The notes beneath the pieces were generated by a model. The model was not told where the DNA came from and ran no database searches. It saw nothing but the letters and a program-made list of their open reading frames with translations. Shown piece by piece: positions 6,311 to 56,022 of a DNA stretch of 64,000 nt (position 1 is the stretch's first letter; every line of letters begins with the position of its first letter). Position numbers and translations under genes: made by a program. The DNA comes from an uncultured Pseudomonadota bacterium (GTDB taxonomy: Bacteria; SAR324; NAC60-12): NCBI GenBank assembly GCA_913020725.1, contig CAJWCD010000002.1, positions 4,217-68,216 on the forward strand. The letters run 5' to 3'.

Positions 6311-6312
6311 TC

Positions 6313-6645: not shown

Positions 6646-6668
6646 ACTGCTGAAACAATAGGAAACGA

Positions 6669-7331: not shown

Positions 7332-7336
7332 TCATC

Positions 7337-10133: not shown

Positions 10134-10145
10134 GAGAGAAAACAA

Positions 10146-10685: not shown

Positions 10686-10690
10686 GCAAC

Positions 10691-11056
10691 ATGGCTAAAG
10701 CATTGAGCCGCGCAGAGGCGCGGAAAATACGACATCGGCGTATTCGTAAGAAGCTTACGGGCACAATACAGCGCCCCCGGCTGACGGTGTTCCGATCCAG
10801 TCGCCACATTTATGTTTCAGCAGTAGACGATGAGGCTGGGCACACCTTGGTGGCGGCGAACACCCTGCAAATCAAGGAAACGCTGAAGGTGAGTGCGGGA
10901 AACAAGGATGCCGCTTACGAGGTGGGCAAGGTGGTCGCTCAGAAGCTGCAAGAGCAGTCGATCAGCGAAGTGGTCTTTGACCGTGGTGGTTACCTTTATC
11001 ACGGTCGGGTGAAATCGCTGGCGGAAGGCGCCCGTGAAGGCGGGTTGAAGTTCTGA
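10691..11056 (+). CDS. rplR: 50S ribosomal protein L18
   Basis: 121 aa, typical L18. Confidence 0.92.
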
Positions 11057-11078
11057 TTGCATTGGACATAGGAAAACG

Positions 11079-11627
11079 GTGGCAGAGAAAAGCAGAGAGA
11101 GAAACAGAGACAAAAGCAGAGAGAGAAACACAGAGAAGGGTGAGAAGAACGAACTGCTCGAGCGGGTGATTCAAGTCAACCGTGTGGCCAAGGTGGTCAA
11201 GGGCGGACGTCGTTTCAGCTTTAGTGCACTGGTGGTGGTTGGTGACGGCAATGGTCGACTCGGACTCGGGCTAGGCAAAGCCGGAGAAGTGACCGAAGCG
11301 ATCCGCAAGGCGATTGCACAGGCCAGCCGAGATTTGGTGACGATCCTCTTGGAGGGCACCTCTATTCCGCATGAAGTCACCTGCAAGTTTGGCGCAGGCA
11401 AGGTGTTGATGAAACCTGCTAGCCAAGGTCATGGAATCATCGCCGCAGGTTCAGTGCGTGCCGTCATGGAAGTGGTTGGGGTGACCGACATTTCAGTGAA
11501 ATGTCTCGGCTCCCGGAACCCGCAGAACCTTGTGCGCTCCACGATCAAGGGGCTTCGCTCGTTGCGTAGCATGGATCAGGCCGCCCGTATGCGCGGCAAA
11601 ACCGTTGAGTACCTGAAGCAGGCCTGA
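11079..11627 (+). CDS. rpsE: 30S ribosomal protein S5 (GTG start) with a repetitive charged N-terminal extension
   Basis: Core reads ...[33 protein letters not shown]. The N-terminus [16 protein letters not shown] is encoded by a 24-nt tandem repeat. Confidence 0.92.
11088..11135 (+). repeat. 24-nt tandem repeat (2 copies, 22/24 identical) inside the 5' end of rpsE
   Basis: AAAAGCAGAGAGAGAAACAGAGAC / AAAAGCAGAGAGAGAAACACAGAG encode KSRERNRD / KSRERNTE. Confidence 0.85.
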
Positions 11628-40312: not shown

Positions 40313-40341
40313 TTGACAATCGCAGGGTCTGGTGAAATACT
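40313..40341 (+). promoter_or_regulatory. Candidate sigma-70 promoter upstream of nuoA (TTGACA-17 nt-AATACT)
   Basis: Perfect -35 hexamer TTGACA 17 nt upstream of an A/T-rich -10-like hexamer, in the metG-nuoA intergenic region. Confidence 0.3.
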
Positions 40342-40387
40342 GCGAAGACTTTAATTGGATCCGTCTGTCCATCTCAAAAAACGTTGC

Positions 40388-40750
40388 ATGACCATCACTA
40401 ACGATTATCTCCCCATCCTGATCCTGATTCTTGTGGGTGCAGGCCTTGCGGGGATGTTCACCATCATTGGTTTGGTGGTCGGCCCCAAGCTGCGTACCCG
40501 TGAGAAGGCGGCCCCATTCGAGTCCGGCTTCATCGGCAAAGGCATGGAGGGCCATCGCTACGACGTCAAGTTCTTCATGACTGCGTTGGTCTTTTTGGTT
40601 TTTGACGTGGAGATTGTCTTTCTCTACCCGTGGACGGTGCAACTCCGTGAGTTGGGCTGGTTCGGGTTCATCGCGAGCATGGTGTTCATTTCGGTGCTGA
40701 CGCTTGGGTTGGTTTACGATTGGAAGAAAGGTGCACTCGAATGGGAGTGA
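40388..40750 (+). CDS. nuoA: NADH-quinone oxidoreductase subunit A
   Basis: Three TM helices and the conserved ...FESGF...RYDVKFF..AL.FLVFDVE..FLYPW motif. Start taken at ATG 40388 (tracked ORF from 40355). Confidence 0.88.
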
Positions 40751-40775
40751 CGAAACAACGATATTAGGAGACGAT

Positions 40776-41480
40776 ATGGCTGCGGCAAACTACGGAGATT
40801 TTCTGACCACCACCTTCGACAACGTGGTGAACTGGTCGCGAAAATTCTCGCTGTTCCAGTACCCCTTTGTGACGGCGTGTTGCGGGATGGAGTACATGGC
40901 GGCAGCGTGTTCGCATTATGATATTGCACGCTTCGGTGCAGAAATCCCACGCTTTTCGCCAAGGCAGTCGGATGTCCTCTGGGTGGTCGGCACGATCACG
41001 CACAAGATGGCTCCGGTGCTGAAGACGATCTACGACCAGATGGCCGAGCCGAAGTGGGTGATAGCCTTTGGCGCCTGTGCGTCATCCGGGGGTTTTTACC
41101 AGAACTACTCGGTGCTTCAGGGCATTGATCGCCTGATTCCGGTCGATGTGTACATCGCCGGCTGCCCCCCGCGTCCGGAAGCCGTGCTTGACGGTCTGAT
41201 GGAGTTGCAGCATCGCATCCAGAACGATGGGCCGACCGTCGAGAGCGGGATGCTCAACCCGTCCATGGCGCGGCACCGCGAGCAGAAACTCGACCACCTC
41301 AGTCGCTACTTCGAGATCCCGGACAAGCAACTGTTGGAAAACACTCAGAATCCCAAAAGCAACCGCAGCACCAAACCCGGCTATGTGTATTCCGATGAAA
41401 ACGTGGTCGTGCGCCCGCACATGGGTTACGACTCGCCTGCTGACCAGCGCAAGAAAGAGGCACTCCGCGAAGAGTCCTGA
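40776..41480 (+). CDS. nuoB: NADH-quinone oxidoreductase subunit B (N2 Fe-S), with ~80-aa C-terminal extension
   Basis: [17 protein letters not shown] and [11 protein letters not shown] cluster ligand motifs. The extra C-terminal tail ...[37 protein letters not shown] is not typical of NuoB. Confidence 0.9.
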
Positions 41481-41512
41481 TCCTGCGGAAAAACTCGTCC
41501 TGACCCACGCAC

Positions 41513-42061
41513 ATGACTGAAACCACCACGGTTCCGGAGTCCGAAACTCCGAGGGCGCTCACGGCCCTGCTCCAGCAGCAGTTTCCGGACACGCTCATTG
41601 ATTTCCACAATCACCGCGGCGATGAAACGGTCCGGGTCAAGCGCGAGGCGATTGTGTCCGTCTGCCAGTTCTTGCGCGATGATCCCCGTTGCAAGTTCGA
41701 ATTGATGGTTGACCTGACCGCAGTGGATTATTTTGAACAACACCGCGAACCGCGCTTTGAGATGGTGTATCACTTCAAATCGCTCACCCACGGACACCGC
41801 TTGCGTGTCAAGACTCCGGTTCCGGAGGACGATTGCCGGGTGGATTCGATCCACGAACTTTGGGAAGCGGTCAACTGGTATGAGCGTGAGTGCTGGGACA
41901 TGTTCGGCATCGAGTTCACGGGGCATCCGAACCTCACGCGCCTGCTCATGTACGAGCAGTTCGAAGGGCATCCCCTGCGTAAAGACTACCCCATGGATCG
42001 CCAGCAACCTATTATAGAACTGCGCGAGATTGACGAACGAAATCAGTACGGAAGGGCATGA
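41513..42061 (+). CDS. nuoC: NADH-quinone oxidoreductase subunit C
   Basis: 182 aa with the 30-kDa subunit motif ...WYERECWDMFGIEFTGHPNLTRLL. Confidence 0.88.
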   Translation: MTETTTVPESETPRALTALLQQQFPDTLIDFHNHRGDETVRVKREAIVSVCQFLRDDPRCKFELMVDLTAVDYFEQHREPRFEMVYHFKSLTHGHRLRVKTPVPEDDCRVDSIHELWEAVNWYERECWDMFGIEFTGHPNLTRLLMYEQFEGHPLRKDYPMDRQQPIIELREIDERNQYGRA

Positions 42062-43287
42062 GCATGGAGAGCGCACTCGCAGAACCTCAACTTTCTAGAC
42101 TCCCCCTCGAAGCCGAAGAGGATACTTCGATCATGGCGATTGAGGTGGGGCCGGCGCATCCCGCGATGCATGGAATCGTGCGCTTCACCACCTATGTGGA
42201 TGGCGAGACAATCGTGGACATGGTTCCGGAAATCGGCTACTTGCACCGGGGCTTTGAGAAGGAATCCGAAAACTCAAAGTGGATTCAGGTCATCCCCTAC
42301 ACCGACCGCCTCAACTACGTCTCGCCTCTGCTCAACAACATCGGCTACTCGATGGCCGTGGAAAAGCTCTTCGGGGCCGAGGTGCCACGGCGGGCGGAGT
42401 ACACCCGTGTCATCATGGGAGAAATCTCCCGGATCACCGATCACCTCACCTGCGTTGGCGCGGCGGCGATGGAAGTGGGTGCGTTCACCTTCTTCCTCTG
42501 GTTCATCAAGGCCCGCGAATACCTCTGGGAACTCATCGAGCAGGTCAGCGGGGCGCGGATGACGACGAACTGGACGCGCTTCGGCGGCAACGCCACCGAC
42601 CTTCCGGACGGCTTCCTCGACGACTTGCAGGAACGGCTCGACAAGGTCAAGGACATCCTCGACGAGTGCGACAAGCTGCTCTCGAAAAACAAGATTTTCA
42701 TTGACCGCGTCAAGGACGTGGGGACGATCTCGAAGGAAGACGCGCTTTCCTTCGGGTTCTCCGGGCCAATGCTGCGTGCTTGCGGGGTGCCGTTTGACGT
42801 GCGGCGCTCCGATCCCCACTCGGTCTATGACGAACTCGATTTCGAGATTCCGGTCGGCACTGTGGGCGACTGCTTCGACCGCTACCTCGTTCGCATGGAA
42901 GAGATGCGCCAGAGCATCTCCATCATCGAGCAGGCGGCGGACAAGATGCCCTACGGCCCGATCATGACCGACCAGCGCTGGGTTGACTATCCGGACAAGA
43001 AGGAGGTGTACGGCAACATCGAGGGATTGATCGAACACTTCAAGATGGTCATGGAAGGGCACCAGCCTCCGAAAGGCGAGGCCTATGTAGCCGTCGAGGG
43101 CGGCAACGGCGAGGTCGGTTTTTATGTCGTCTCAGACGGCTCCGGAGACCCCGTGCGAGTGCGGTTGCGCCCTCCGTGCTTCAACTATGTTCAGGCCATG
43201 AGGCACATGACCATCGGCCACTACATTGCCGACATCGTGCCCATCTTCGGCTCCATCAACATGATCGGCGGGGAGTTAGATCGCTAA
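42058..43287 (+). CDS. nuoD: NADH-quinone oxidoreductase subunit D (49 kDa)
   Basis: 409 aa with GPAHPAMHGI...PEIGYLHRG...RxxYV..L motifs. Overlaps the nuoC stop. Confidence 0.93.
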   Translation: MSMESALAEPQLSRLPLEAEEDTSIMAIEVGPAHPAMHGIVRFTTYVDGETIVDMVPEIGYLHRGFEKESENSKWIQVIPYTDRLNYVSPLLNNIGYSMAVEKLFGAEVPRRAEYTRVIMGEISRITDHLTCVGAAAMEVGAFTFFLWFIKAREYLWELIEQVSGARMTTNWTRFGGNATDLPDGFLDDLQERLDKVKDILDECDKLLSKNKIFIDRVKDVGTISKEDALSFGFSGPMLRACGVPFDVRRSDPHSVYDELDFEIPVGTVGDCFDRYLVRMEEMRQSISIIEQAADKMPYGPIMTDQRWVDYPDKKEVYGNIEGLIEHFKMVMEGHQPPKGEAYVAVEGGNGEVGFYVVSDGSGDPVRVRLRPPCFNYVQAMRHMTIGHYIADIVPIFGSINMIGGELDR

Positions 43288-43312
43288 AGAATGCTCTGCC
43301 TAAACGGATTCC

Positions 43313-43489
43313 GTGGTCTTTGTTCCCCATGCAGAAAGTGAGTATCAACGACTTGTCGCTGTATTGGATAATTTGATTGATGAAGTGGGTGAAGATGAGA
43401 ATCCTCCCTTGGTTTCCTTGATGGAAGTCGTTGGAGTTCTGATCGAGAAGTATGAGGATGAGCATGTTCCAGAATTGTCAAAAATCTAG
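43313..43489 (+). pseudogene. Remnant of a HigA-family (COG5499-type) antitoxin, N-terminal domain only, truncated before the HTH
   Basis: 58-codon frame ...HAESEYQRLVAVLDNLIDEVGEDENPPLVSLMEVVGVLIEKYEDEHVPELSKI*. It matches the conserved N-terminal module of HigA-like antitoxins (I.tEaeYeaAL..i..L.da.pgt.egd.L..L..LIE.YE..HyPI). No HTH domain follows. Confidence 0.4.
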
Positions 43490-43507
43490 AAGTTGTTAAT
43501 ATCCGAG

Positions 43508-44116
43508 ATGCGAACAGACACGATCACTATCCCCGCCCGTCGCGGCAAGGCCGCACAGGTCAAAGCCGGACAAGGCGTGAAAGTGATCAACACGCATGGG
43601 GCGCAGGTGGTGGACACTTGGGCGTTCCGAGCCGATGACCTGACCGAGTTCATGTCGATGGAACACAGCCGACCCTACTTCATGAAACTGCGCCCAGAAG
43701 CGGGCGACACGCTCGTGACCAACCAGCGTCGTCCAATCCTGACTTTGATCGAGGACACCTCCGGAGGCATTCATGACACCCTGATGGCGGCGTGTGACAA
43801 CCCACGCTTTGGCTTGCTCGGCTGCACGGAGTACCATGACAACTGCACCGATAACCTCGCTGCCGGGATGCAGGAGCTTGGACTCAAAGAGCCGGAAACT
43901 CCGAGTCCGCTCAACCTTTTTATGCACATTCCGTGGACGGTGGAGGGCGGCTTGGCATGGGAAGCTCCGGTTTCGACTCCGGGAAGCTATGTGGTGCTAC
44001 GGGCGGAGATGGACTTGGTGGTCGCGTTTTCGGCGTGCCCCCAAGACATTCTGCCGATCAACGGCGTGATGCGAGCGCCCACTGAGGCACACTTTCAAAT
44101 CCTCGACAACCTGTGA
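43508..44116 (+). CDS. DUF1989 (urea-carboxylase-associated family) protein
   Basis: TITIPARRGKAAQVKAGQGVKVINTHGAQVVDTWAF..., HDTLMAACD and YHDNCTDNL match what I recall of the DUF1989 family. Inserted between nuoD and nuoH. Confidence 0.55.
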   Translation: MRTDTITIPARRGKAAQVKAGQGVKVINTHGAQVVDTWAFRADDLTEFMSMEHSRPYFMKLRPEAGDTLVTNQRRPILTLIEDTSGGIHDTLMAACDNPRFGLLGCTEYHDNCTDNLAAGMQELGLKEPETPSPLNLFMHIPWTVEGGLAWEAPVSTPGSYVVLRAEMDLVVAFSACPQDILPINGVMRAPTEAHFQILDNL

Positions 44117-44144
44117 ACCCTTTGCCGCAAGGCAGAGAACGTAA

Positions 44145-45218
44145 ATGAATCCACTGCTTGAAATCCTCTCGATTCCGCTAGTCCAGACGATCCTGAAGAT
44201 CATGTTCATGATCATGATCTTCGCCATGCCGCTCGGCACTCTGATGACGCTGATGGAGCGCAAGTGGAGCGCCATGGTGCAAGATCGGGTAGGACCGAAC
44301 CGGGCGAACGTTGGGAACTTCCGGGGGCGCGGACTCGCTCATATTGCGGCGGACGCACTCAAGTCCATCTTCAAGGAAGACACGATACCGGAAGGCTCAG
44401 ATCGCTTCCTCTACTTGATCGCACCCTTCTTCGGATTGATCGCCGGGGTTTCGGTTTTTGCGATTGTGCCCATCGCCGCACCGATTGGAAACTTCACCTT
44501 TCAGATCACGGATATTGAACCCGGATTGCTCTTCATCTTCGCCATCACCTCCCTGAGCGTCTATGGCGCGGTCCTCGCCGGAGCCAGTTCCAACAGCAAG
44601 TTCGCCTTACTCGGCGGCATCCGAGCCTCAGCGCAGATGATCTCCTATGAAGTCTTCATGGGTCTCGCGCTCATGGGCATCTTCATGGTCTATGGCTCCA
44701 CCCGCGTCAGCGAAATCGTGGACGGCCAGAACGCCTACTGGTTTGGAAGCTTGATTCCAAAATGGGGAATCCTAACCCAACCGCTCGGCTTCCTACTCTT
44801 CACCACGGCTTTGGTCGCAGAAACCAAGCGGGCGCCGTTTGACGCTCCGGAAGGCGAATCCGAAATTGTCGCGGGCTACTTTTTAGAGTATTCTGGAATG
44901 CGCTGGTCGGCGTTCATGCTTGCCGAGTACCTTGCCATCGTCGGAGTTGCTGCACTTCTCACCACGCTCTTCTTCGGCGGCTACCATGTCCCGTGGCTCC
45001 ACCTTTGGGAGAGTGCTCCGGTCTGGTTGGTGCGAGTGCTTCAGTTCACCAAGTTCACCGCGTTTGTGCTCTTCTGTTGCTGGTTCCAGATTCAACTGCG
45101 CTGGACGGTGCCGAAATTCCGCTTCGACCAAACGATGGCCCTCGGCTGGAAAAAACTGCTACCGCTTTCGTTGGCGAACACCGTGGCCACAGCGGCCATC
45201 ATCCTGATTTTTGTCTGA
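44145..45218 (+). CDS. nuoH: NADH-quinone oxidoreductase subunit H
   Basis: 357 aa polytopic protein with ...MERKWSAMVQDRVGPNR... and ...AETKRAPFDAPEGESEIVAGY... motifs. Confidence 0.92.
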   Translation: MNPLLEILSIPLVQTILKIMFMIMIFAMPLGTLMTLMERKWSAMVQDRVGPNRANVGNFRGRGLAHIAADALKSIFKEDTIPEGSDRFLYLIAPFFGLIAGVSVFAIVPIAAPIGNFTFQITDIEPGLLFIFAITSLSVYGAVLAGASSNSKFALLGGIRASAQMISYEVFMGLALMGIFMVYGSTRVSEIVDGQNAYWFGSLIPKWGILTQPLGFLLFTTALVAETKRAPFDAPEGESEIVAGYFLEYSGMRWSAFMLAEYLAIVGVAALLTTLFFGGYHVPWLHLWESAPVWLVRVLQFTKFTAFVLFCCWFQIQLRWTVPKFRFDQTMALGWKKLLPLSLANTVATAAIILIFV

Positions 45219-45226
45219 GAAAATTT

Positions 45227-45805
45227 ATGGAACTGAAAGTCAAACAGATGCAACGGGTGGACGGATTCAAGGAATCCCTCTACCTGCCCGCGCTCTTCAT
45301 GGGATTCCGCCTGACCGTCCGCCACTTCTTCCGCAACCTTTTTGGGTCAAAGGATGTGGTCACGGTGCAGTATCCGGAAGAGCATCGCCCGGTTTCGGTG
45401 CGCTGGCGTGGACGGCATCGGCTCACACGCCGGGAAGACGGCTTCCTCAAATGTGTAGCCTGCTACATGTGCGAAACGGTGTGTCCGGCAAAGTGCATCC
45501 ACATTGACGCGGGAGATCATCCGGACCTCTCGGTGGAGAAATACCCCGTACACTTCGACATTGATGAACTGCGTTGCGTCTTCTGCGGACTCTGCGTGGA
45601 GGCGTGTCCGAAGGAGGCGATTCGGATGGACACCGGTGTGATCTCGATGGCCTTTACATCGCGGAACCCCTTCGATTTTACCCGTGATTTGCTCAAGGAT
45701 GAGTACCAACCCAATGAGGTGACCAAATTCTCGGACGCGGACCTCCCGCAGCCCAAATCCCAAGCAGAGGCGCTTCCTAATTCGGTTGGTCTTCCTGCGG
45801 CATAA
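45227..45805 (+). CDS. nuoI: NADH-quinone oxidoreductase subunit I (2x[4Fe-4S] ferredoxin), with ~50-aa C-terminal extension
   Basis: Two CxxCxxCxxxCP motifs (CVACYMCETVCP, CVFCGLCVEACP). Start set at ATG 45227; the tracked ORF from 44993 overlaps nuoH. Confidence 0.9.
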   Translation: MELKVKQMQRVDGFKESLYLPALFMGFRLTVRHFFRNLFGSKDVVTVQYPEEHRPVSVRWRGRHRLTRREDGFLKCVACYMCETVCPAKCIHIDAGDHPDLSVEKYPVHFDIDELRCVFCGLCVEACPKEAIRMDTGVISMAFTSRNPFDFTRDLLKDEYQPNEVTKFSDADLPQPKSQAEALPNSVGLPAA

Positions 45806-45853
45806 TTCGACAGCGGGGCCAAGCATCCGCTCCCGCTCTCCCAAGTTTTCCTA

Positions 45854-47482
45854 TTGACTGGCGAGTCCTTCACTCCGTACGAACAAGCGCGGCTTGCGCC
45901 TTACGTCACCAACACGGACCGCTCCATCTTTGCGCTCACGAACCTCCCAGAGGTGATCAAGGGTGCCCTCTTTTCACGCTACTCCCGTTCCACGCTGGGG
46001 CTGCGGCGTCTCCTGCTCCGGGAATTCATTGACGACGATGCGGCTGAATTCTCCGCAATCCAAGGTGGCATAGGAAACATCGCACAAGACACTGCGCTGG
46101 CGGTTGGACGTGCGCAGTCGTTCTACGACCGCATCCTCGACGGCTACGGGGACGACTCCATTGGCGAACTCGGCGGGGCGCATCTTGCGGTGGAGGAAGT
46201 CTCGATTCTGGCCACCAAAACACTGGAAGACGCTCGCATCGGCGGTTCACCGCTGGAGAAATCGACGCGCTACGTTTCCTTCGGGCAGAAAGTTGCGGGC
46301 GATTACCGTTTCTACAAAGAGCCGCGACTGCTCGACTCCCGACACCGCGAACGCTACCTGAACGCCTGCCGGACGCTGTTTGACACCTACGATCAACTCA
46401 ACGAACCGATCCGCGAGTACGTCCGCAGCCGCTTGCCCCGTGATCCAAACACCCCGGAGGCCGCTTACGAACGTTCCGTCCGCGCCTTGGGCTTTGACTT
46501 CATCCGGGGGCTGTTGCCCGCTGCGACCCTCACGAACATGGGGGTGTTCGGCAATGGGCGCTTCTTTGAAAGCCTCATCTCCCGGCTCCACATTGAACCT
46601 CTCCAGGAATTTCAGGACATCGCCCAAGCTTCTTGGGAAGAGTTGGCAAAGGTGGCCCCGTCCTTCATCCGTCGTGCCCATCCGGATCATCGGCACTTTC
46701 AAGGCTACGCCGCATTCATGGAAGCTCAACGGCAAAAAATTCAGTCGGTTGCCGAGCAGCTTGAACAGGGAAGTGCAGAGCCGCTTTCTCTCCCTGCCGG
46801 AACCTCCGGGGAGGTGCGTTTGGTGGAATGGGACGCTGACGCCGAGATCAAACTGCTGGCGGCCTTGCTGTACGAACACACGGCGTTGCCGCTCCAGCAG
46901 GTGCAGGAGCAGGTTCGGCAACTGCCCGATGCCGAGCGCGAACGCATTGTCCGGGAAAGCATCGCCCTGCGCGAACACCGACGACACAAGCCGCCACGGG
47001 CACTGGAGCGTGTGTTCTACACCTTCGATTTGTTGGGCGATTATGGCATGTACCGCGACTTGCATCGTCACCGGATGCTCACGCAATGGCGGCAACCGCT
47101 GACCACGCGGTTCGGTTACAACACCCCTGTGGAACTGGAAGACGCCGGACTCGCCCAGCCCTACCACGCTGCAATGGCACAGGCGGCAGCAACATTTGAA
47201 GCAATTGCGGTGGACTATCCGCACGAAGCCCAATATGTCGTGCCGATGGCCTACCGCATCCGCTGGGCGATGCATATCAATCTGCGAGCGTTGCTGTGGC
47301 TTGTTGAATTGCGCAGCACACCGCAAGGTCATCCCGGCTACCGCCACATCGCGCAGGAACTCTTCCGGGAGGTAAAACGCGTACAACCTCGGTTGGCCGA
47401 GTGGATGAAGTTTGTTGACCTTGGCAACTACGCCTTGGGTCGCCTTGATGCCGAAGTCCGGCAGGAATCCAAGTCACCGTGA
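45854..47482 (+). CDS. Long-form ThyX-like protein (FAD-dependent thymidylate synthase family fold, apparently duplicated, non-canonical motifs)
   Basis: 542 aa, TTG start. The second half has ThyX-like ...LHRHRMLTQWRQPLTTRFGYN (compare RHRx7SxRY) and ...WAMHINLRALLWLVELRSTPQGHPGYRHIAQ (compare the NaRSLmnFlnLR..hAqwEI motif). The first half has a ThyX-like N-terminus and a compressed SRHRERY. Confidence 0.55.
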   Translation: MTGESFTPYEQARLAPYVTNTDRSIFALTNLPEVIKGALFSRYSRSTLGLRRLLLREFIDDDAAEFSAIQGGIGNIAQDTALAVGRAQSFYDRILDGYGDDSIGELGGAHLAVEEVSILATKTLEDARIGGSPLEKSTRYVSFGQKVAGDYRFYKEPRLLDSRHRERYLNACRTLFDTYDQLNEPIREYVRSRLPRDPNTPEAAYERSVRALGFDFIRGLLPAATLTNMGVFGNGRFFESLISRLHIEPLQEFQDIAQASWEELAKVAPSFIRRAHPDHRHFQGYAAFMEAQRQKIQSVAEQLEQGSAEPLSLPAGTSGEVRLVEWDADAEIKLLAALLYEHTALPLQQVQEQVRQLPDAERERIVRESIALREHRRHKPPRALERVFYTFDLLGDYGMYRDLHRHRMLTQWRQPLTTRFGYNTPVELEDAGLAQPYHAAMAQAAATFEAIAVDYPHEAQYVVPMAYRIRWAMHINLRALLWLVELRSTPQGHPGYRHIAQELFREVKRVQPRLAEWMKFVDLGNYALGRLDAEVRQESKSP

Positions 47483-47584
47483 GTCCGGAAGCCGCTTTCC
47501 CGAGTTGCCTTTCTCGTCGGTTGTTGGTTATGTTAGTAATTTGTTGCTGCCTCCCGTGGTGGAACACGCACCCACAAACAGAGC

Positions 47585-48832
47585 ATGGATAAACCCAAAC
47601 ATATCGTCCTGACCTCTCATCCGGGACGCGAGGAACAACGCGGCCCGAAAATCCAATGGGGGGAGGCCGACCCCAAAGTGCGAGGGCCAGTGATCGGCTC
47701 GGTGCAAAACCCGGCCAAGCGCAACGTCATCGGCGCGCACTCCGGCTCGTACGCCATCTACCGTGCCCTTGCGGTGGCGTCCGGACAACTGGATGCGGAT
47801 CATGTTCCGGACCTCACGGACACCACCCCGATTGTTCCCTTGGGGCCGCATCCGCAGTGGCATGATCCGGACAAGATTGTTGCGCTCGATCCTTTCGGGC
47901 ATCTCATTGGAGAGGTGTTTGCGGATGAATTGAAATCCGGTCTCGACATCCGCCCGACGATTGCAGTGACGCGGGCGCGGCTGCACCTTCCGGAATTCCA
48001 GATGGCGGTGAAGGAAGGCCGCATGATTCCGGACGGCAAAATCCTGCTGAAGTCCGGCGAGGTCAGCGTGACGAAAGTCGCGGTCGAACCGGTCTGGCAC
48101 CTTCCGGGCGTGGCGAAGCGTTTTGACATTGGCGAGTCGCAGTTGCGCCGCAGCCTCTTTGAGCAAACCGGAGGCATGTTTCCGGAACTGGTGACTCGCC
48201 CCGACCACCATGTTTTCCTTCCGCCCATCGGCAGCATCACGATCTATGTCGTCGGCGACCTCGCGGCGGTCACGGACCCGAAACGCAAACTGGCCTGCCG
48301 CGTCCACGACGAGTGCAACGGCTCGGATGTGTTCGGCTCCGACATCTGCACCTGCCGCCCCTACCTCATTCACGGCATCGAGGTCTGCGTGGAAACCGCG
48401 CAACAGGGCGGTGCAGGCGTAATCGCGTATTTCCGCAAAGAAGGCCGTGCTTTGGGCGAAGTCACGAAATTCCTCGTTTACAATGCTCGCAAGCGGCAGG
48501 AAGGCGGGGACCGTGCCGAAACCTACTTTGAGCGCACCGAATGCATCGCAGGGGTGCAGGACATGCGCTTTCAGCAACTCATGCCGGACGTGCTGCACTG
48601 GTTGGGCATCACCCACATCGACCGCCTTGTTTCGATGAGCAACATGAAATACGACGCCATCGCGGGGCAGGGCATCACGGTCGGGGAGCGCGTGGCGATT
48701 CCGGACGATCAGATTCCAGACGACGCCAAGGTTGAGATTGACGCGAAAAAAGCGGCGGGCTACTTCACTCCGGAAGCGGTGGATTCGAGTTCGCTTGGGG
48801 AAACCACCGGACGCGACTTGGGAGAGTTTTGA
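47585..48832 (+). CDS. GTP cyclohydrolase II family protein with ~230-aa N-terminal extension (URC1-like)
   Basis: C-terminal domain ...CRVHDECNGSDVFGSDICTCRPYL...IAYFRKEGRALG...LGITHIDRLVSMSN has RibA zinc-ligand cysteines and the R/K-E-G-R motif. 415 aa matches the URC1 architecture, not plain RibA. Confidence 0.7.
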   Translation: MDKPKHIVLTSHPGREEQRGPKIQWGEADPKVRGPVIGSVQNPAKRNVIGAHSGSYAIYRALAVASGQLDADHVPDLTDTTPIVPLGPHPQWHDPDKIVALDPFGHLIGEVFADELKSGLDIRPTIAVTRARLHLPEFQMAVKEGRMIPDGKILLKSGEVSVTKVAVEPVWHLPGVAKRFDIGESQLRRSLFEQTGGMFPELVTRPDHHVFLPPIGSITIYVVGDLAAVTDPKRKLACRVHDECNGSDVFGSDICTCRPYLIHGIEVCVETAQQGGAGVIAYFRKEGRALGEVTKFLVYNARKRQEGGDRAETYFERTECIAGVQDMRFQQLMPDVLHWLGITHIDRLVSMSNMKYDAIAGQGITVGERVAIPDDQIPDDAKVEIDAKKAAGYFTPEAVDSSSLGETTGRDLGEF

Positions 48833-48834
48833 GC

Positions 48835-50079
48835 ATGGACGCCCAGGAAGCAGTCGCGCACTTGCGCTCTCCTGCAACGATTCGGGAACGCTGCCGAATG
48901 GTGTACGAGGCCGCACGGTCGGATCAGCTCGAACACTTTCGGTTGGTTCCGGAACGACTGCCCGATGCTGTGGAAACCGTGGTTGCGGAAATCCGCAAAA
49001 ACTACCCCGCGCTCGACATTCCGTACCACAGCCGCTGGCGGCATTTTGTGATTGATCGCGTGGATCATGCCACTCCCGTGCTGCGGCCACGGGTGGAAAC
49101 CGATGCTCGTGAGCGCCTGCGGGTGCAGTTTGAACTTGCCGTCACCAGTGTGTTGCTGGACGCCGGAGCCGGAGCCGGCTGGTGTTTTCAGAATCCCTTA
49201 GATCGGCGTTCGCACGGACGCTCCGAAGGACTCGCCCTCGCCAGCTTTTACCTGTTTGCGGATGGTGCATTTTCGAGCAATCCCGACCATCCGTTTCGGG
49301 CCGATGCCGAAGGACTCCGGAACTTTAGCGCGGACAAACTGGCAGAGGGGTTTCAGGTTTCTGCCGACAACCCGCTGGTGGGCTTGGAGAAACGGGCGGA
49401 ACTGCTCCGCAAGCTGGGAGAGGCGCTGACCACCCGCCCAAGTCAATTTGGCGGCGCACCTGCACGCATCGGCGATCTCGCTGATTGGTTCTGGGGTGAG
49501 GCAACACCCAACGATCAGGGCACGCGTTCGCTTCCAGCAGCAGCCATCCTGCGGGTCTTGCTCGACAGTTTCAGCAGCATTTGGCCCTCGCGTTTGGAAA
49601 TTGATGGGCAGCCGCTCGGTGATGTTTGGCGGTATCCGGTGGTGCAGACAAACGACCTCACCAACGGACTGATTCCCTTTCACAAACTCTCGCAATGGCT
49701 GGCGTATTCACTGGTGGAACCGTTGGAGGAATCCGGCCTCCGCATTGTGGAACTGGATGCGCTCACCGGACTTCCGGAATACCGCAACGGCGGGCTGTTC
49801 GTGGACCTTGGAGTGCTGGAACCCAAGCACCCGGAGGTGCTGGAAACCGTGCATTCGGTGGATTCGGAGGCGATCGTCGAGTGGCGGGCGCTCACCGTCT
49901 GTTTGCTTGATGAAATCGCCAAAGGGGTCCGTGTTGAGTTGGGGTGCACTCCGGAAACGCTACCCCTGAGCCGCATTCTGCAAGGTGGAACTTGGAGTGC
50001 CGGACGTGCTCTTGCCCAAGCCAAACGTCCGGGAGGGGTGCCGCCAATCCAAATTGAAAGCGACGGCACTGTGTTCTGA
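48835..50079 (+). CDS. Hypothetical protein, possibly DUF1688/URC4-like (assigned from genomic context)
   Basis: ~415 aa, no family I can confirm by eye. Abuts the URC1-like gene (stop/start 2 nt apart) and precedes upp, the arrangement reported for bacterial URC1-URC4 pairs. Confidence 0.4.
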
Positions 50080-50107
50080 TTTTCGTTCACTCATTCAGGA
50101 GAATTCC

Positions 50108-50740
50108 ATGTCTGAAAACTTTATCCACATCAAGCACCCGCTCGTTCAGCACAAGCTCTCGCTGATGCGCAAAAAGGACACCTCCACCAAAGGATTCCGC
50201 GACCTCATCCGCGAGGTTGGAATGCTGCTGGCTTATGAGGTGACGAAGGATTTGCCGCTCAAGTATGAGGAGATCGAGACTCCGTTGCAGAAGATGAACG
50301 CCCCCTTTCTTGGCGGCAAGAAGCTCTGCCTTGTGCCAATTCTACGAGCCGGAATGGGATTGCTTGACGGTTTTTTGGCGATGATTCCTGCCGCTCGTGT
50401 AGGGCATATCGGACTCTACCGCGATCCAGAAACCCTCGTAGCCGTCGAGTACTACCTCAAACTTCCGGATTCCGTGGATGAGCGGCTTGTGATCGTCATT
50501 GATCCGATGCTTGCCACAGGACATTCCGCAGCCGCAGCCGTTTCCCGGATCAAGGAAAGCGGCGCGACCTCCATCCGTTTCGTCTGCCTGCTCGCTGCTC
50601 CGGAAGGCATCCGGTACTTCAACAAGGAGCATTCTGATGTCCCAGTTTATGCTGCGGCTTTGGACGAACGACTCAACGATCACGCCTACATTCTCCCCGG
50701 ACTCGGAGATGCTGGAGACCGGATTTTCGGTACCAAGTGA
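50108..50740 (+). CDS. upp: Uracil phosphoribosyltransferase
   Basis: Near-colinear with E. coli Upp: ...[13 protein letters not shown]..., ...[19 protein letters not shown]..., ...[17 protein letters not shown]. Confidence 0.93.
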
Positions 50741-50768: not shown

Positions 50769-51395
50769 ATGAGGCTGCAAGTCGCCTTTGATCTGCTCAG
50801 TTTGGAGGAGGTACTGGCATTGTTGGAGGAAGTGCATGACCTTGTGGATATCGTGGAAATTGGCACCCCACTGATTCTCAAGGAGGGCTTGAAGGCGGTC
50901 ACGAAGATCAAGGAATGCTACCCGGATCAGGTGGTGCTCGCTGACCTGAAGATCATGGATGCGGGTGCCCTTGAAGCGGAAATCGGGTTTGATGCGGGAG
51001 CAGACATGATCACTGTGCTGGGGCTGGCTTCACGGACGACCAAGAGCGCGGCGAAAAGCACGGCTGAGCAACATGGAGGAAAGATCGTCGTTGACCTGAT
51101 CAACCACCCACATCCTGTGCAGGAATGGGAGGAACTCCGCAAAATCGGTATGGATTTCTGTTGTATCCACACGGCACATGATGATGCACAACAGCACAAC
51201 ACGCCGTTGGAAACACTAGAAAATTTTCACAAAGTCCATGGGGGGAGCAGGGTCGCAGTTGCCGGAGGTGTTAAACCGTCCCTAATTCGTGAGATGAAAT
51301 CCTTTCCGCCGGAGATCGTCGTGGTCGGAAGCTATATTACTGGTGCGGAGGATGCCCGCGAAGCAGTCCAAAAAATTAGAAAAGCGATGGATTGA
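50769..51395 (+). CDS. hxlA: 3-hexulose-6-phosphate synthase / KGPDC-like (OMP-decarboxylase suprafamily)
   Basis: MRLQVAFDLLSLEEVLALLEEV...VDIVEIGTPLILKEGLKAV...ADLKIMDAG is the HPS/KGPDC family pattern. Confidence 0.7.
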   Translation: MRLQVAFDLLSLEEVLALLEEVHDLVDIVEIGTPLILKEGLKAVTKIKECYPDQVVLADLKIMDAGALEAEIGFDAGADMITVLGLASRTTKSAAKSTAEQHGGKIVVDLINHPHPVQEWEELRKIGMDFCCIHTAHDDAQQHNTPLETLENFHKVHGGSRVAVAGGVKPSLIREMKSFPPEIVVVGSYITGAEDAREAVQKIRKAMD

Positions 51396-51958
51396 GGATG
51401 AACTTTGCAGATTATTCCTCAACTGTGTTGAAAGAAATTGAACAGACTCTCAAGCAAGTTGAGGGGTCGAAGCTGTCAGAATTTTCTGTTCAACTGTGGC
51501 AGTCGCCCAAGGTCTTTGTGGCCGGCGCCGGCAGAACCGGTCTAGTCATGCGTTGTTTTGCAATGCGCTTGATGCATTTGGGGTTGTATGTTCAAATTCT
51601 TGGTGACACCCTTACTGGTGCCATGAAAAAGGAGGATTGCTTGCTGATCGGTTCCGGCTCCGGAGAAACCCCTAGTTTGGTGAGCATTGCTGAAAAAGCG
51701 CAGGAACTGGGAGTCCGGATTGTCCTGTTCGGCATCAATCCAGATTCCAGCATCGGAAAATTGGCATCAGATTGTCTGAGGATTCCGGCACCCTCGCCAA
51801 AACTGAATCACGCAGCTGCTTGCCATTCGATTCAGCCCATGGGTTCACTCTTTGAGCAGAGTCTGTTGCTCACCTTGGATTCTCTTGTAGGCGTGATGAT
51901 GCATCAAAAAGGCATGAACTCGAAGAGCATGTTTTTGAACCATGCGAATGTGGAATAA
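51392..51958 (+). CDS. hxlB: 6-phospho-3-hexuloisomerase-like SIS-domain protein
   Basis: SIS domain (...KVFVAGAGRTGLVMRCFAMRLMHLG...LLIGSGSGETPSLV...). 4-nt overlap with the preceding HPS-like gene. Lower GC (~43%). Confidence 0.7.
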   Translation: MRMNFADYSSTVLKEIEQTLKQVEGSKLSEFSVQLWQSPKVFVAGAGRTGLVMRCFAMRLMHLGLYVQILGDTLTGAMKKEDCLLIGSGSGETPSLVSIAEKAQELGVRIVLFGINPDSSIGKLASDCLRIPAPSPKLNHAAACHSIQPMGSLFEQSLLLTLDSLVGVMMHQKGMNSKSMFLNHANVE

Positions 51959-52107
51959 ACCGCATTCTGAAAACAACATTAAGGAGAGCCTATGCTTTGA
52001 ACACTTGTCTTCATTTTATTAGTCAGCGAGGAATTGAATTGATGCCCGGATTCGGAATCCGTGTTTCACTGGCTGACCCTCTATCATGCAACTCTAAGGA
52101 GTGACTT

Positions 52108-53586
52108 ATGAAACTGTTATTTAAGAAATTATTGGGGATCTTTGTCCCTTTCATGTTACTTGCCAGCGGACCGGTTCATGCCGGAAAATTTGACGGCATC
52201 ACGATTCGGGTGCTCTCAAGACCTGGTCCAGTCATCTCAGGTGCTGTTGACATGCGTGGCAAGAAGTTCACCGAACTTACCGGCGCCAAGGTCATTGTTC
52301 TGGAGTTGCCGTTCTCCGAACTGTTTAACAAGGTGCTCACAGACTGGTCTCAGGGCACGAACTCGATTGACGCAGCGGTGACTTCTTCTGCGTGGGTTCC
52401 GGAACTTGTTGATATGGGGCTGGTCGCAGACCTCAGCGATTTCGTTGCGAATGACCCAGGCCTAAAATTAGATGACATCACCGAGTATTTCCGTGAGTTC
52501 AACCAGAAAGTCAATGGCAAGACTTACACCCTGACTCTGGATGGTGATTTCCACATGTTCTATTATCGCACGGATGTGTTGAATCGCTTCAGCCAGGAGC
52601 CACCGACGACTTGGGACGAATGGTTCGAAGTGGCGAAGGCAATCCATGGTAAGGACTACAACGGCGATGGCGAACCCGACTATGCGTCCTGCGCGTTCAA
52701 GAAACGATCTGCGCAGAGTTACTTCACGATCTGGTCCGTAGCGTCGGCCTTTATTCAGACCAAAGGAACTTCGCAAGGGGTGTTCTTTGATACCAAAACC
52801 GGTAAACCGTCGCTGCCCAATCCAGGATTTGCAGAAGGTTTGCGCGTTTACAAAGAGATGGGCAAATACGGTCCGGCTGACGAGTTGAACATGGACATTG
52901 CCGATATCCGTGCGCTGTATCTGGCCGGGCGTTGTGCGATGGTGATCGAGTGGGGCGACACTTCTCCGCTGGCACTGGAAAGCGATACGGTAAGAAATCT
53001 CTGGGGAGCATCCCAGATGCTGGGCAGCACCAGAGTGTGGAATCGTGACACCAACAGGCTTGAGCAGTGTAATCCCACGCTTTGCCCACACGCGATTAAC
53101 GGTGTCAATCACGCACCATTCGGAGCGTTTGGTGGCTGGTCTGCGTATATCAACAAAAACGCCGATCCGAAAGTCATTCAGGCCGCGTATGAGTTTTTCT
53201 CCTACATGAATGCACCGGAGCAATCGAACATCGATGTCACGCAAGGTTGGACAGGATTCAATCCTTATCGCACATCGCAGTTTGAAGATATCGACAACTG
53301 GTTGGAAGCAGGTTTCACCAGAGCTTCGGCAGCTGCGTACCTGAACGGTATGAAGCAAAGTTTGAGCAACCCGAACTTCGTTTCCGATCTCCGTATTCCG
53401 GGAGCCGCGCAATATACCAGCGTGATTCTCGATACTGAACTAGCGCGCTATCTAGCCGGTGAGATCAACGAAGAACAGACCATGGCCAACATCGCGGAAG
53501 CCTGGGAAGAGGTTACCGAAGACTTTGGGCGTGAGAAGCAGATGAAACTGTATCGGGCTACGCTGGGCCTCAAGGCCAATTATTAG
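52108..53586 (+). CDS. ABC transporter substrate-binding protein (family 1, carbohydrate-type)
   Basis: 492 aa with signal peptide MKLLFKKLLGIFVPFMLLASGPVHA and an extracellular solute-binding fold. Good RBS AAGGAG. Confidence 0.8.
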   Translation: MKLLFKKLLGIFVPFMLLASGPVHAGKFDGITIRVLSRPGPVISGAVDMRGKKFTELTGAKVIVLELPFSELFNKVLTDWSQGTNSIDAAVTSSAWVPELVDMGLVADLSDFVANDPGLKLDDITEYFREFNQKVNGKTYTLTLDGDFHMFYYRTDVLNRFSQEPPTTWDEWFEVAKAIHGKDYNGDGEPDYASCAFKKRSAQSYFTIWSVASAFIQTKGTSQGVFFDTKTGKPSLPNPGFAEGLRVYKEMGKYGPADELNMDIADIRALYLAGRCAMVIEWGDTSPLALESDTVRNLWGASQMLGSTRVWNRDTNRLEQCNPTLCPHAINGVNHAPFGAFGGWSAYINKNADPKVIQAAYEFFSYMNAPEQSNIDVTQGWTGFNPYRTSQFEDIDNWLEAGFTRASAAAYLNGMKQSLSNPNFVSDLRIPGAAQYTSVILDTELARYLAGEINEEQTMANIAEAWEEVTEDFGREKQMKLYRATLGLKANY

Positions 53587-53620
53587 CACTTGCCGATAAC
53601 AGTGAGTTTTTGTTTGTAGC

Positions 53621-54796
53621 GTGACTGCACCGCATCAAATGCAGGGCAGGGGCCAGCCGGAGTCAACAACTCCGGCTGGTTCGCTTGTTTCCTCGGCCAC
53701 GGGTTCAAACCTGAGCGAGTGGGTGGATCGTCACTCACGACAGTTGTTCATTTTTCCCGCCGTCTTTCTAATCCTAGTTTTTTCCATCTTTCCACTGGTT
53801 GCCTCGCTCCTGATCACATTCACTCGCATTCGACCCAGAGCGGGGGGATATCAGATTCGCTGGGTCGGGTTCAAAAACTTCAAAAAATTATTTACAGGGT
53901 CGGAGCAGTATCACCTGCTTGGAACGTTCGAGGGCATCGGTATTTTCGGATGGGTGGTGATCGTTGTTACTGCTGTGGCAATGATTTACTGGCTCTACAG
54001 ATATTCGCAGCAGGACTTTCGGCTCGTAGGGTTTGCCGGAAGACTAATCACGGCGAGTGCTACTTTTGGAATAGCGGTGTTATTTGGTGCGACTCTGTTC
54101 AGTGGCAATAATTTTGGCACGATACCGATGACACTCATTTATGTCCTGCTCGGTTGCTCGGTGCAGTTCTTGATCGGATTGGGGTTGGCCTATTTGTGTT
54201 CGCTGCCCATCGCCGGGCGCGCATTCTTCCGGGTCGTCTTTTTCGTTCCATTGATGATCACACCGGTTGGCATCGCATACCAGTGGCGGATGCTGGCGGA
54301 CATGCGGTTAGGGCCAGTCACACCGCTGTGGCACTGGGCAGGGCTGGGTGAATTTGCTTGGGGATCGAATGCGCTGGCGGCGCGGCTCATGGTCATGGTC
54401 GCTGATGGTTGGATGTGGATACCTTTCATGTTTGTGGTGATGCTTGCCGCATTGGAAACCGTGTCGCGTGACCAAGTTGAGGCTGCGGAAGTGGACGGAG
54501 CAGGAAAGTGGTTCATTTTTCGAGACATCACTTGGCCGCAGATTGCCCCGGTGGCAGGCACGGTTGTGCTGATTCGCTGGATCGAGGGCTTCAAGCTGGT
54601 TGACATTCCCAATGTCATGACCAACGGAGGTCCCGGCATTGCGACCGAAACCTTAACGATGCATTCGTGGACGCGCTGGCGATCACTGGATTTCGCCGGC
54701 TCATCGGCAGTGGCGTACACATTGTTGGTTGTCGCCGTGATCATCTGTGTTTCGTTTTTTAACTTTGTCATTCGCAAGCATGCTCACAGATTATGA
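53621..54796 (+). CDS. ABC transporter permease (MalF/UgpA-like)
   Basis: Polytopic membrane protein with N-terminal extension. Precedes a second permease and an ATPase. Confidence 0.8.
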   Translation: MTAPHQMQGRGQPESTTPAGSLVSSATGSNLSEWVDRHSRQLFIFPAVFLILVFSIFPLVASLLITFTRIRPRAGGYQIRWVGFKNFKKLFTGSEQYHLLGTFEGIGIFGWVVIVVTAVAMIYWLYRYSQQDFRLVGFAGRLITASATFGIAVLFGATLFSGNNFGTIPMTLIYVLLGCSVQFLIGLGLAYLCSLPIAGRAFFRVVFFVPLMITPVGIAYQWRMLADMRLGPVTPLWHWAGLGEFAWGSNALAARLMVMVADGWMWIPFMFVVMLAALETVSRDQVEAAEVDGAGKWFIFRDITWPQIAPVAGTVVLIRWIEGFKLVDIPNVMTNGGPGIATETLTMHSWTRWRSLDFAGSSAVAYTLLVVAVIICVSFFNFVIRKHAHRL

Positions 54797-56022
54797 ATAG
54801 CAGCGCTGAGCCCGGTTTTGTAGGACGCCGCAGCCGTTGGTTCGAACCGGCGGGCATTGGCAAATTATCTCCCGGTGGAAAACTGATCACCTATTTCTTT
54901 TTGCTGCTGTGGGCATTCGTGGTCTTGTTTCCGATCTATTGGCTTTTGATAACGGCGTTCAAACTGCCACCCGATGTCAACAATGGCCCAGCCTATCTTC
55001 CTTGGATCGATTTTCAACCGTCTCTGCATGCTTGGAGGAACATATTTGTCGAGGATTTTGCAGATACATTCCGTTCCTACAGTAATTCGATCATCATCTC
55101 GTTTTTCTCTACGATACTGTGTGTGATCATCGGCTCATTGGCGGCTTATGCACTGGTTCGGATTCAATACAAACCAAAGTTCGGCTCCATTTTGCTGTTT
55201 GTTCTCAGTCTGGTAGGCGCGTTTATCGCGGTCGGACAGTGGGGAATAGACTGGCGATTCGGTGTGACGGCAGGATTGGCGGTCTTTTTTCTGTTGTGGC
55301 GGGCAACCGTGCGGAGACATTTGAGCGACCGGCAGATGTCGCTGGCACTTGGCGTGTTGCTCGTGGTCGCAGCAAGCTCGTTTTTCGCCGCAAGTTTGTC
55401 CGCCGAGTTCGCCGAATACGGACGCCCGGGATCGATTATTCTTGTGTTGCTGGTGATTGGGTGGAGTACGGCGCACTGGCTGAAAAGCTCAATCGGCAAC
55501 GCGGATATTCTGTTCTGGATCATCTCCCAGCGCATCCTGCCCCCGGTTGTGGTCGTGTTACCCATCTACATCATGTTTCAGCGTATCGGTCTGCTCGATA
55601 CCCACCTCGCGTTGATCCTTACCTATGCCGTTGTCAATCTACCGATCGTCGTGTGGTTGATGCACGATTTTATCTCCACCATTCCCCTAGATCTTGAGGA
55701 AAGTGCGCAGTTGGACGGCGCATCGCGTTTGCAGATTTTCTGGGAAATCGTTTTACCGTTATCCAGACCGGGGCTTGCGGCGACCACACTGCTGACATTG
55801 ATTTTGTCTTGGAATGAGTACCTGCTGGCAACATTTCTTTCTACTACCAAGGCGCAAACCATGCCGTTAATGGTCGCCGCCCAGATCACTCAGGAGCGGG
55901 GAATCTACTGGTGGAACATGGCGGTCGTGATCATTATCATGATCATTCCCGTGGTTGCCATGGCGTTCGTGCTGCAGCGGTTCATCGCGAAGGGAGTGCT
56001 GCTCGGAGCTGTAAAGGGATGA
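54793..56022 (+). CDS. ABC transporter permease (MalG/UgpE-like) with N-terminal extension
   Basis: EAA-loop region ...LEESAQLDGASRLQIFWEIVLPLSRPGLAATTLL... 409 aa, longer than the typical ~280. Confidence 0.85.
   Translation: MNSSAEPGFVGRRSRWFEPAGIGKLSPGGKLITYFFLLLWAFVVLFPIYWLLITAFKLPPDVNNGPAYLPWIDFQPSLHAWRNIFVEDFADTFRSYSNSIIISFFSTILCVIIGSLAAYALVRIQYKPKFGSILLFVLSLVGAFIAVGQWGIDWRFGVTAGLAVFFLLWRATVRRHLSDRQMSLALGVLLVVAASSFFAASLSAEFAEYGRPGSIILVLLVIGWSTAHWLKSSIGNADILFWIISQRILPPVVVVLPIYIMFQRIGLLDTHLALILTYAVVNLPIVVWLMHDFISTIPLDLEESAQLDGASRLQIFWEIVLPLSRPGLAATTLLTLILSWNEYLLATFLSTTKAQTMPLMVAAQITQERGIYWWNMAVVIIIMIIPVVAMAFVLQRFIAKGVLLGAVKG

Follow-up and report, generated by a model that had tools for sequence, protein, structure and literature searches.

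Complex I is pictured as a modular enzyme made up of an NADH-oxidising N-module, a Q-module with NuoH, and an antiporter-like arm. The genes of its cyanobacterial form, NDH-1, are scattered over several loci, and those of Escherichia coli, Thermus and Paracoccus form the canonical 14-gene nuoA-N operon. The nuo genes are colocalised in 86% of the genomes that encode complex I (Spero et al. 2015, PMC4453560); the split gene set described here therefore belongs to a known minority. Enzymes of 11 subunits that have no N-module are also well described (Moparthi & Hagerhall 2011, PMC3144371; PMC11238625). We analysed a 64-kb stretch of DNA from an uncultured SAR324 bacterium (contig CAJWCD010000002.1, positions 4,217 to 68,216; hereafter the window), in which nuoA, B, C, D, H and I form one cluster, a small open reading frame (ORF) and a DUF1989 gene lie between nuoD and nuoH, and catabolic genes follow. 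Literature searches on the NADH dehydrogenase or nuo genes of SAR324 turned up no account of such an arrangement.

The explanation that we favour, and as a whole consider likely, is that the window carries one part of a split nuo gene set that is a trait of its lineage, together with two younger insertions. The SAR324 genes do not form a single nuoA-N operon; they are permuted and split along module lines, the block boundaries following the modular picture of the enzyme. One unit, nuoA-B-C-D-H-I, encodes the quinone-reducing Q-module and its membrane partners NuoA and NuoH, a second, nuoE-F-G-J-K-L, the NADH-oxidising N-module and part of the membrane arm, and nuoM and nuoN would lie elsewhere again. 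The window holds the first unit in its conserved SAR324 setting, with skp-fabZ-gatC and then yhbY-metG upstream and a ThyX-like gene and upp downstream, and the enzyme would most likely be a normal NADH-oxidising complex I built from the products of at least three transcription units. The first of the two insertions, between nuoD and nuoH, would be a cassette of the window's species group, composed of a decaying higB-higA-type module and DUF1989 and now reduced to a 5'-truncated half-HigA ORF and an intact DUF1989 gene; the other would be a URC1-like gene and a DUF1688 gene placed beside upp.

The nuoABCDHI block in SAR324

The order nuoABCD, small ORF and DUF1989, nuoHI, catabolic genes, as given by a sequence-only reading of the window, was confirmed by ORF and Pfam analysis. 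The Q-module proteins NuoB, NuoC, NuoD and NuoI, with their iron–sulphur (Fe-S) motifs, scored far above the cut-offs of Pfam and NCBIfam, and their PDB homologues are complex-I chains; the genes of the membrane subunits NuoA and NuoH (Pfam Oxidored_q4 and NADHdh) adjoin them. As in the canonical operon, nuoC and nuoD are separate, translationally coupled genes, and the overlap between them, seen earlier, is 4 bp. When the 64-kb window was searched by tblastn with the NuoE, F, G, J, K, L, M and N proteins of several lineages, no further nuo gene appeared, in agreement with the earlier statement that nuoEFG and nuoJ-N are missing from this locus.

A NuoD scan with one genome per species returned about 40 loci of the SAR324 cluster, many of them still labelled Deltaproteobacteria. 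The window NuoD is 68–97% identical to these, the closest being loci L001 (97%) and L008 (95%), followed by about 35 further loci at 76–85%; on these identities the window is assigned to a SAR324 cluster bacterium. One 2.3-kb contig (L011, JAKURE010000070.1) binned as a 'Halobacteriales archaeon' carries a SAR324 nuoB-C-D with 82% NuoD identity, and that bin is probably contaminated.

The proteins of the window were then mapped onto all retrieved loci. Among the 39 SAR324-type loci holding both genes, nuoD and nuoH are at most 250 bp apart in 36, and nuoEFG lies between them in none. Departures from this tight junction are limited to L008, L001 and the window together with the contigs nearly identical to it; in the other SAR324 loci the spacing is 5–127 bp. 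In alphaproteobacterial outgroups, a nuoD-nuoH gap of about 4 kb is filled by nuoEFG. Downstream, 26 of the 30 SAR324 loci with enough sequence have the ThyX-like gene immediately next to nuoI, starting 17–108 bp after it (334 bp in one locus with a partial match), and nuoJ follows nuoI in 0 of 30. The tight nuoD-nuoH junction and the nuoI-ThyX-like order also occur in lineages with 68–80% NuoD identity, and yhbY-metG lies upstream of nuoA in most SAR324 clades. With both adjacencies, nuoD to nuoH and nuoI to the ThyX-like gene, seen all over SAR324, the split is phylum-wide and was not caused by an insertion. By this synteny the order 'nuoABCDHI, then ThyX-like' is conserved across SAR324 and the split is an old lineage trait, the very outcome that the sequence-only reading had named as marking one. 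Its proposals that the operon had been rearranged by insertion, that the small ORF and DUF1989 stand in place of nuoEFG, and that catabolic genes took the place of nuoJ-N do not agree with the order shared by the relatives.

As a separate observation, five outgroup loci (L039, L040, L042, L044 and L051; two labelled Anaeromyxobacteraceae, one Myxococcales and two unclassified bacteria) have a nuoD-nuoH gap of about 1.7–2 kb that holds a NuoG-like match and no NuoE or NuoF match.

The complementary nuoEFGJKL block

In a low-GC SAR324 clade, the flank upstream of yhbY contains NuoG-, NuoK- and NuoL-like genes. ORF reading and a metagenome scan with the NuoG of this clade gave the full order on one strand: nuoE-F-G-J-K-L, skp-fabZ-gatC-yhbY-metG, nuoA-B-C-D-H-pdxH-I, ThyX-like, upp. 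Elsewhere the first block has other neighbours, being arranged as nuoEFGJKL-skp-fabZ-gatC followed by unrelated genes (L130 type, L176 and L178), as nuoEFGJKL-rpoB-rpoC (L179-182, a GC-0.50 clade), or between ilvBN and pabB, both on the opposite strand, with variable genes before pabB (L197-199). The two blocks lie on separate contigs both in assembly GCA_015231885.1 (nuoEFGJKL on contig 1, L176; contig 2, L020, holds nuoABCDHI) and in GCA_015231825.1 (L178 and L023), and in both assemblies these complementary partial sets are the sole nuo clusters seen. nuoEFG was found in every SAR324 clade examined, clustered with nuoJKL, and the NuoF protein carries all four Pfam NuoF domains. The nuoEFGJKL cluster has no A, B, C, D, H or I of its own; each block thus holds what the other lacks, which argues for one enzyme. 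The suggestion of a 'partly relocated NDH-1' therefore proved right, since relatives carry nuoEFGJKL at another locus, and that of an 11-subunit-type enzyme lacking the N-module is contradicted by the presence of nuoE-F-G beside nuoJ-K-L in these relatives.

Compared with the canonical operon, the subunit families are the same and the gene order within each SAR324 block is canonical, but the genes fall into at least three permuted blocks, with EFG-JKL before ABCD-HI where the two are linked, five or six unrelated genes between the linked blocks, and nuoM and nuoN presumably elsewhere. SAR324 NuoG is also short (530–546 aa) and scores just below the NCBIfam NuoG cut-off (L016 13-1644; L176 11280-12872; L197 11389-13029). 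Direct adjacency of nuoD and nuoH is a feature shared with the 11-subunit enzymes of cyanobacteria and chloroplasts, Bacteroidota and Desulfitobacterium, from which SAR324 differs in keeping nuoEFG.

The gene content, the synteny, the homologies and the relative ages of the events are shown by these comparisons; we infer that two or three such units build one enzyme and that the window's own genome holds the second. The nuoEFGJKL loci L197-199 have a GC content of 0.571, a GC content at third codon positions (GC3) of 0.73 and a tetranucleotide correlation to the window of 0.97. The correlation is 0.96–0.99 for loci overlapping the window or encoding exactly its proteins, and 0.03–0.84 for other SAR324 clades. 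Judged by composition, L197-199 represent the probable second nuo locus of the window's species group. A position just upstream of the window was also considered, suggested by the rpsG-fusA-tuf genes with which the window begins and by the nuoL-rpoB-rpoC order of one clade; it was ruled out, as on contigs with the exact RpsG of the window rpsL is preceded by leuS, leuA, dcd and murJ, and the approximately 10 kb upstream of the window contain no nuo gene. In the choice of high-GC NuoF homologues, the GARP/FYMINK amino-acid ratio was found to be an unreliable proxy (P0149 scored high yet comes from GC-0.50 contigs) and was replaced by best-hit bookkeeping.

Two subunits of the window had been described as extended. 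For NuoB the extension of about 80 residues is real and conserved in SAR324. Homology to PDB entries ends at about residue 150–162 of 234, leaving some 70–80 residues beyond every solved NuoB homologue, and the NCBIfam NuoB models cover residues 8–152 only. The number of residues after the GCPPRP motif is 96–101 in the main marine SAR324 clades, 49–53 in one clade, 39–46 in deep lineages and 22–42 in outgroups. The tail, an extra of about 70 residues relative to the canonical subunit, contains the conserved motifs ENxQNPKSNR...KPGY and MGYDSP. Cyanobacterial NdhK has a long C-terminal tail as well (PDB 6hum_K, 237 aa, aligned only to residue 172), but no sequence similarity between the two tails was detectable. 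The supposed extension of about 50 residues in NuoI did not hold up: the protein has 192 residues versus 180 in E. coli and 182 in Thermus, and the part beyond its second Fe-S motif is of similar length. In a deep-branching, high-GC relative (L035), tandem NuoB-like matches at 6254-6715 and 6965-7348 could reflect a duplicated or split nuoB.

Younger insertions and other features of the window

Apart from the window and the contigs nearly identical to it, the 857-bp insert that separates nuoD from nuoH is seen only in L008 and, as remnants, in L001, all with at least 95% NuoD identity. Because of this confinement we date the insert as recent, and the nuo split thus long predates it. The content of the site is also variable. 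In L008 the site carries genes for a threonine-dehydratase-like pyridoxal-phosphate enzyme, a DUF4258 toxin and a YgiT/MqsA-like antitoxin with a YgiT zinc finger (9793-11364), followed by DUF1989. In L001 a 123-bp stretch of 85% identity, spanning the 3' end of DUF1989 and the adjoining start of nuoH, is all that is retained of that gene; most of DUF1989 was therefore deleted there. The L001 spacer also encodes a peptide that aligns to HigB N-termini: it shares 34% identity with a plasmid HigB (29 aa aligned) and 56% with the truncated HigB that precedes half-HigA genes elsewhere (32 aa aligned); Pfam gave no HigB match for it, and the HigB assignment comes from these pairwise alignments only. 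The nuoD-nuoH site seems to collect mobile cargo, and the insertion with toxin-antitoxin debris that the sequence-only reading placed here is present and recent.

The 58-codon ORF at the start of the insert is homologous to HigA antitoxins, as in type II higB-higA modules. It aligns to residues 22–72 of a plasmid HigA (49% identity over 51 aa, E 9e-17), a homology seen only by tblastn against annotated plasmids; Pfam, NCBIfam and a family profile search of PDB sequences gave no usable match. Its homologues number more than 3,000; the best outside SAR324 are 79–86% identical, typically 75 aa long, and come from Poribacteria, Zixibacteria and others, and identity among the SAR324, Poribacteria and Zixibacteria members is about 80%. 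This family matches the first 70 or so residues of 133-aa plasmid HigA antitoxins encoded directly after higB (plasmids CP042210.1 and NZ_CP092201.1), and 72 plasmid records match a 75-aa relative under genes annotated as HigA or helix-turn-helix (HTH) protein. No HTH match was obtained with Pfam for the ORF, and both the ORF and the entire family stop at about residue 72 of the 133-aa HigA. All members share one C-terminus, that of the window copy included; this copy is short of the first 17 codons only, and these would run into the end of nuoD. To judge from these alignments, the entire 75-aa family lacks the HTH half, whose absence is no sign of local decay. The earlier label of a 'HigA remnant' is thus correct as to homology with the N-terminal half of HigA, but the gene has not decayed at its C-terminus.

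Poribacteria-like contigs (L160-L167) carry a higB pseudogene or stump upstream of the 75-aa gene (3001-3228), and a HigB fragment survives at the L001 site. The window departs from a higB-higA module in having no toxin gene: no higB lies upstream of the ORF, which begins 25 bp after the nuoD stop. The ORF is compositionally foreign (GC 0.42, GC3 0.41, versus 0.68–0.81 in its neighbours), and no Shine-Dalgarno sequence is visible before its GTG start. Comparison with a Poribacteria-like copy of 72% nucleotide identity gives 32 synonymous against 10 non-synonymous codon differences, and the 75-aa family is therefore under purifying selection; variation within the window's population is too scant for such counts, and its contigs had been chosen by exact protein identity. 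It is conceivable, though unlikely, that the HTH-less half-HigA family represents a novel type of free-standing anti-toxin or regulator. A DUF123 nuclease gene begins 16 bp downstream of the half-HigA gene in the Poribacteria-like contigs.

The DUF1989 protein scored 103.5 bits against NCBIfam UAAP2 (cut-off 284.7) and 70 bits against UAAP1 (cut-off 206), two urea-amidolyase-associated families, and its match to the trimethylamine N-oxide (TMAO) demethylase N-domain was also below cut-off. Urea carboxylase is absent from the window and from the neighbourhoods of the DUF1989 homologues examined. Homologues of 73–81% identity occur in many phyla, some beside an arginase-family gene, and a copy of 74% identity lies at an unrelated position in the assembly that includes SAR324 locus L015. 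DUF1989 is best seen as a passenger metabolic gene, and nothing links it to complex I.

The second insertion of the window lies beyond the nuo genes. The ThyX-like protein after nuoI scores 61.8 bits against NCBIfam thyX (TIGR02170, cut-off 87.9). A URC1-like gene and a DUF1688 gene separate it from upp only in the window's group and in L002 (L002 11391-13859; L008 15750-18241); elsewhere in SAR324 the distance from the ThyX-like gene to upp is 41–162 bp. On this distribution the pair is a second lineage-specific insertion. Lachancea kluyveri reportedly catabolises uracil through a URC pathway that includes URC1, URC4 and URC6. The window has genes of the URC1 type, the URC4 type (DUF1688) and the URC6 type (uracil phosphoribosyltransferase) in a row, which resembles the core of this yeast pathway, but no urea amidolyase (URC3,5).

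A further gene interrupts the nuo block in the low-GC SAR324 clade, where pdxH (pyridoxamine-5'-phosphate oxidase, above the NCBIfam cut-off) lies between nuoH and nuoI in loci L007, L010, L013, L014, L016, L017, L019, L021, L033, L038 and L055 (e.g. L016 12301-12939). By its position and clade, this is another, independent insertion inside the block.

Table 1. Features of the nuo region and its downstream genes in the window (positions in the window).
Feature	Position	Strand	Basis or remark
Sigma-70-like promoter match in the metG-nuoA interval, TG-extended (TTGACA-17-AATACT)	40313-40341	+	Consensus match only; 7 in region vs 5.4 expected
nuoA, 120 aa	40388-40750	+	Pfam Oxidored_q4, E 5.9e-33; start per gene calls on identical contigs
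nuoB, 234 aa, lineage-specific C-terminal tail of ~70-80 aa (roughly residues 155-234)	40776-41480	+	Pfam Oxidored_q6; start per gene calls on identical contigs
nuoC, 182 aa	41513-42061	+	Pfam Complex1_30kDa, E 4.9e-49
nuoD, 409 aa, 4-bp overlap with nuoC	42058-43287	+	Pfam Complex1_49kDa, E 9.4e-110
857-bp insert, nuoD stop to nuoH start	43288-44144	+	Comparison with other SAR324 loci
58-codon ORF, 5'-truncated half-HigA copy	43313-43489	+	GTG start
DUF1989 gene, 202 aa, intact	43508-44116	+	Pfam DUF1989 (PF09347), E 7e-50, profile positions 2-168 of 168; start per gene calls on identical contigs
nuoH, 357 aa	44145-45218	+	Pfam NADHdh, E 2.4e-98
nuoI, 192 aa	45227-45805	+	Pfam Fer4 family; PDB NuoI/TYKY matches
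ThyX-like protein, 542 aa, two Thy1 stretches	45854-47482	+	Pfam Thy1, E 2.5e-39
URC1-like protein, GTP_CH_N + GTP_cyclohydro2 (PF12471 + PF00925)	47585-48832	+	Pfam
DUF1688 (URC4-like) gene	48829-50079	+	Pfam
upp (uracil phosphoribosyltransferase)	50108-50740	+	Pfam UPRTase, E 1.4e-73

Successive genes of the nuoA to nuoI stretch are spaced by -4 to 32 bp, those around the insert by 18–28 bp; one good promoter match precedes nuoA, and no terminator-like site was found between genes of the nuo region (Table 1). On this evidence, nuoA through at least nuoI are likely read as one transcript. Upstream of nuoA the window contains skp, fabZ, gatC, a gene for a 368-aa protein, yhbY and metG, and hps and phi come after upp. 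Elsewhere in the window lie genes for ribosomal proteins and an ABC sugar transporter, acetoin-dehydrogenase-like genes, and smc, hisD, dnaG and rpoD. The segment from hps-phi through the sugar transporter (50769-56000) has a GC content of 0.49–0.54 versus about 0.57–0.60 upstream and may be a separately acquired block.

Alternative explanations and significance

An artefact of assembly or binning is conceivable for any metagenomic source, and a related locus (L011) was clearly mis-binned as an archaeon. The junctions of the window, however, are identical on at least 41 (24 + 17) contigs assembled independently from different samples and with different assemblers, and the gene order is therefore not an assembly artefact; a contig covering the first 10.5 kb of the window is 99.6% identical to it, and composition is uniform except in the 177-bp ORF. 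We give a chimeric origin practically no credence. A contiguous nuoA-N operon that was recently broken, with the HigA remnant and DUF1989 replacing nuoEFG and the catabolic genes replacing nuoJ-N, would account for toxin-antitoxin debris exactly at the canonical nuoEFG site and for the nuoEFG-filled gap of the alphaproteobacterial outgroups. It is nevertheless very improbable, being already refuted by synteny: the nuoD-nuoH and nuoI-ThyX-like adjacencies are SAR324-wide, down to the most divergent NuoD sequences, and the insert is confined to the closest relatives of the window. An enzyme of the 11-subunit type, fed by ferredoxin or another donor as in cyanobacteria, Bacteroidota and Desulfitobacterium, fits the absence of nuoEFG from 64 kb and the adjacency of nuoD and nuoH, which is also seen in the 11-subunit operons L075, L077 and L078. 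This too is improbable, though less so than a recent break, given that SAR324 genomes encode NuoE, NuoF and NuoG in a cluster complementary to nuoABCDHI in two assemblies, and that contigs of window-like composition carry nuoEFG.

The insert might also have been recruited, with DUF1989 and perhaps the small ORF co-expressed as functional accessories of complex I. DUF1989 is intact and host-like in composition (GC3 0.72), lies 28 bp before nuoH, and is retained in more than 40 contigs and in L008. The chance of such a role is nonetheless slim: L001, the closest relative, deleted DUF1989 and retained nuoD and nuoH, the L015 assembly has its copy at an unrelated site, and homologues elsewhere have arginase-family neighbours and a resemblance to urea-amidolyase-associated and TMAO-demethylase domains; a PDB search, not aimed at this question, showed no complex-I structure with a DUF1989-like subunit. 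A more far-reaching proposal would make SAR324 complex I a distinct variant, its module-permuted genes (N-module with JKL, then Q-module with NuoA and NuoH, M and N apart) remaining intermixed with skp-fabZ-gatC-yhbY-metG and, in one clade, pdxH because selection favours a staged or co-regulated assembly, and the conserved NuoB tail of about 70 residues serving as a built-in accessory element of the Q-module, with the half-HigA family, separately, as a free-standing anti-toxin or regulator. We regard this as unlikely, if less remote than the foregoing alternatives.

Several points weigh against the split gene set that we favour. The nuoEFGJKL contigs are tied to the genome of the window by composition only. 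Neither nuoM nor nuoN turned up in the SAR324 loci examined, where queries from Alphaproteobacteria and Firmicutes gave only cross-matches on nuoL, and a complete 14-subunit set is accordingly not demonstrated. A weak promoter-like match at 43475-43502 could split the nuoABCDHI unit, and we infer both co-transcription and assembly into one enzyme from gene arrangement.

On the whole the locus is an ordinary one, which adds a further case of split nuo genes with minor twists of its lineage. Among these, the conserved tail of NuoB and the half-HigA proteins offer modest leads. The locus also offers a dated example of an essential respiratory operon that tolerates insertions in its middle, namely the cargo between nuoD and nuoH and pdxH between nuoH and nuoI in a sister clade, and the content of the nuoD-nuoH junction differs even between near-identical genomes. 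SAR324 is a very abundant deep-ocean lineage. An apparently broken or N-module-less complex I in its genomes should be read with caution, as one third of a split gene set, and pathway callers that expect a contiguous nuoA-N could mis-score SAR324 respiration.

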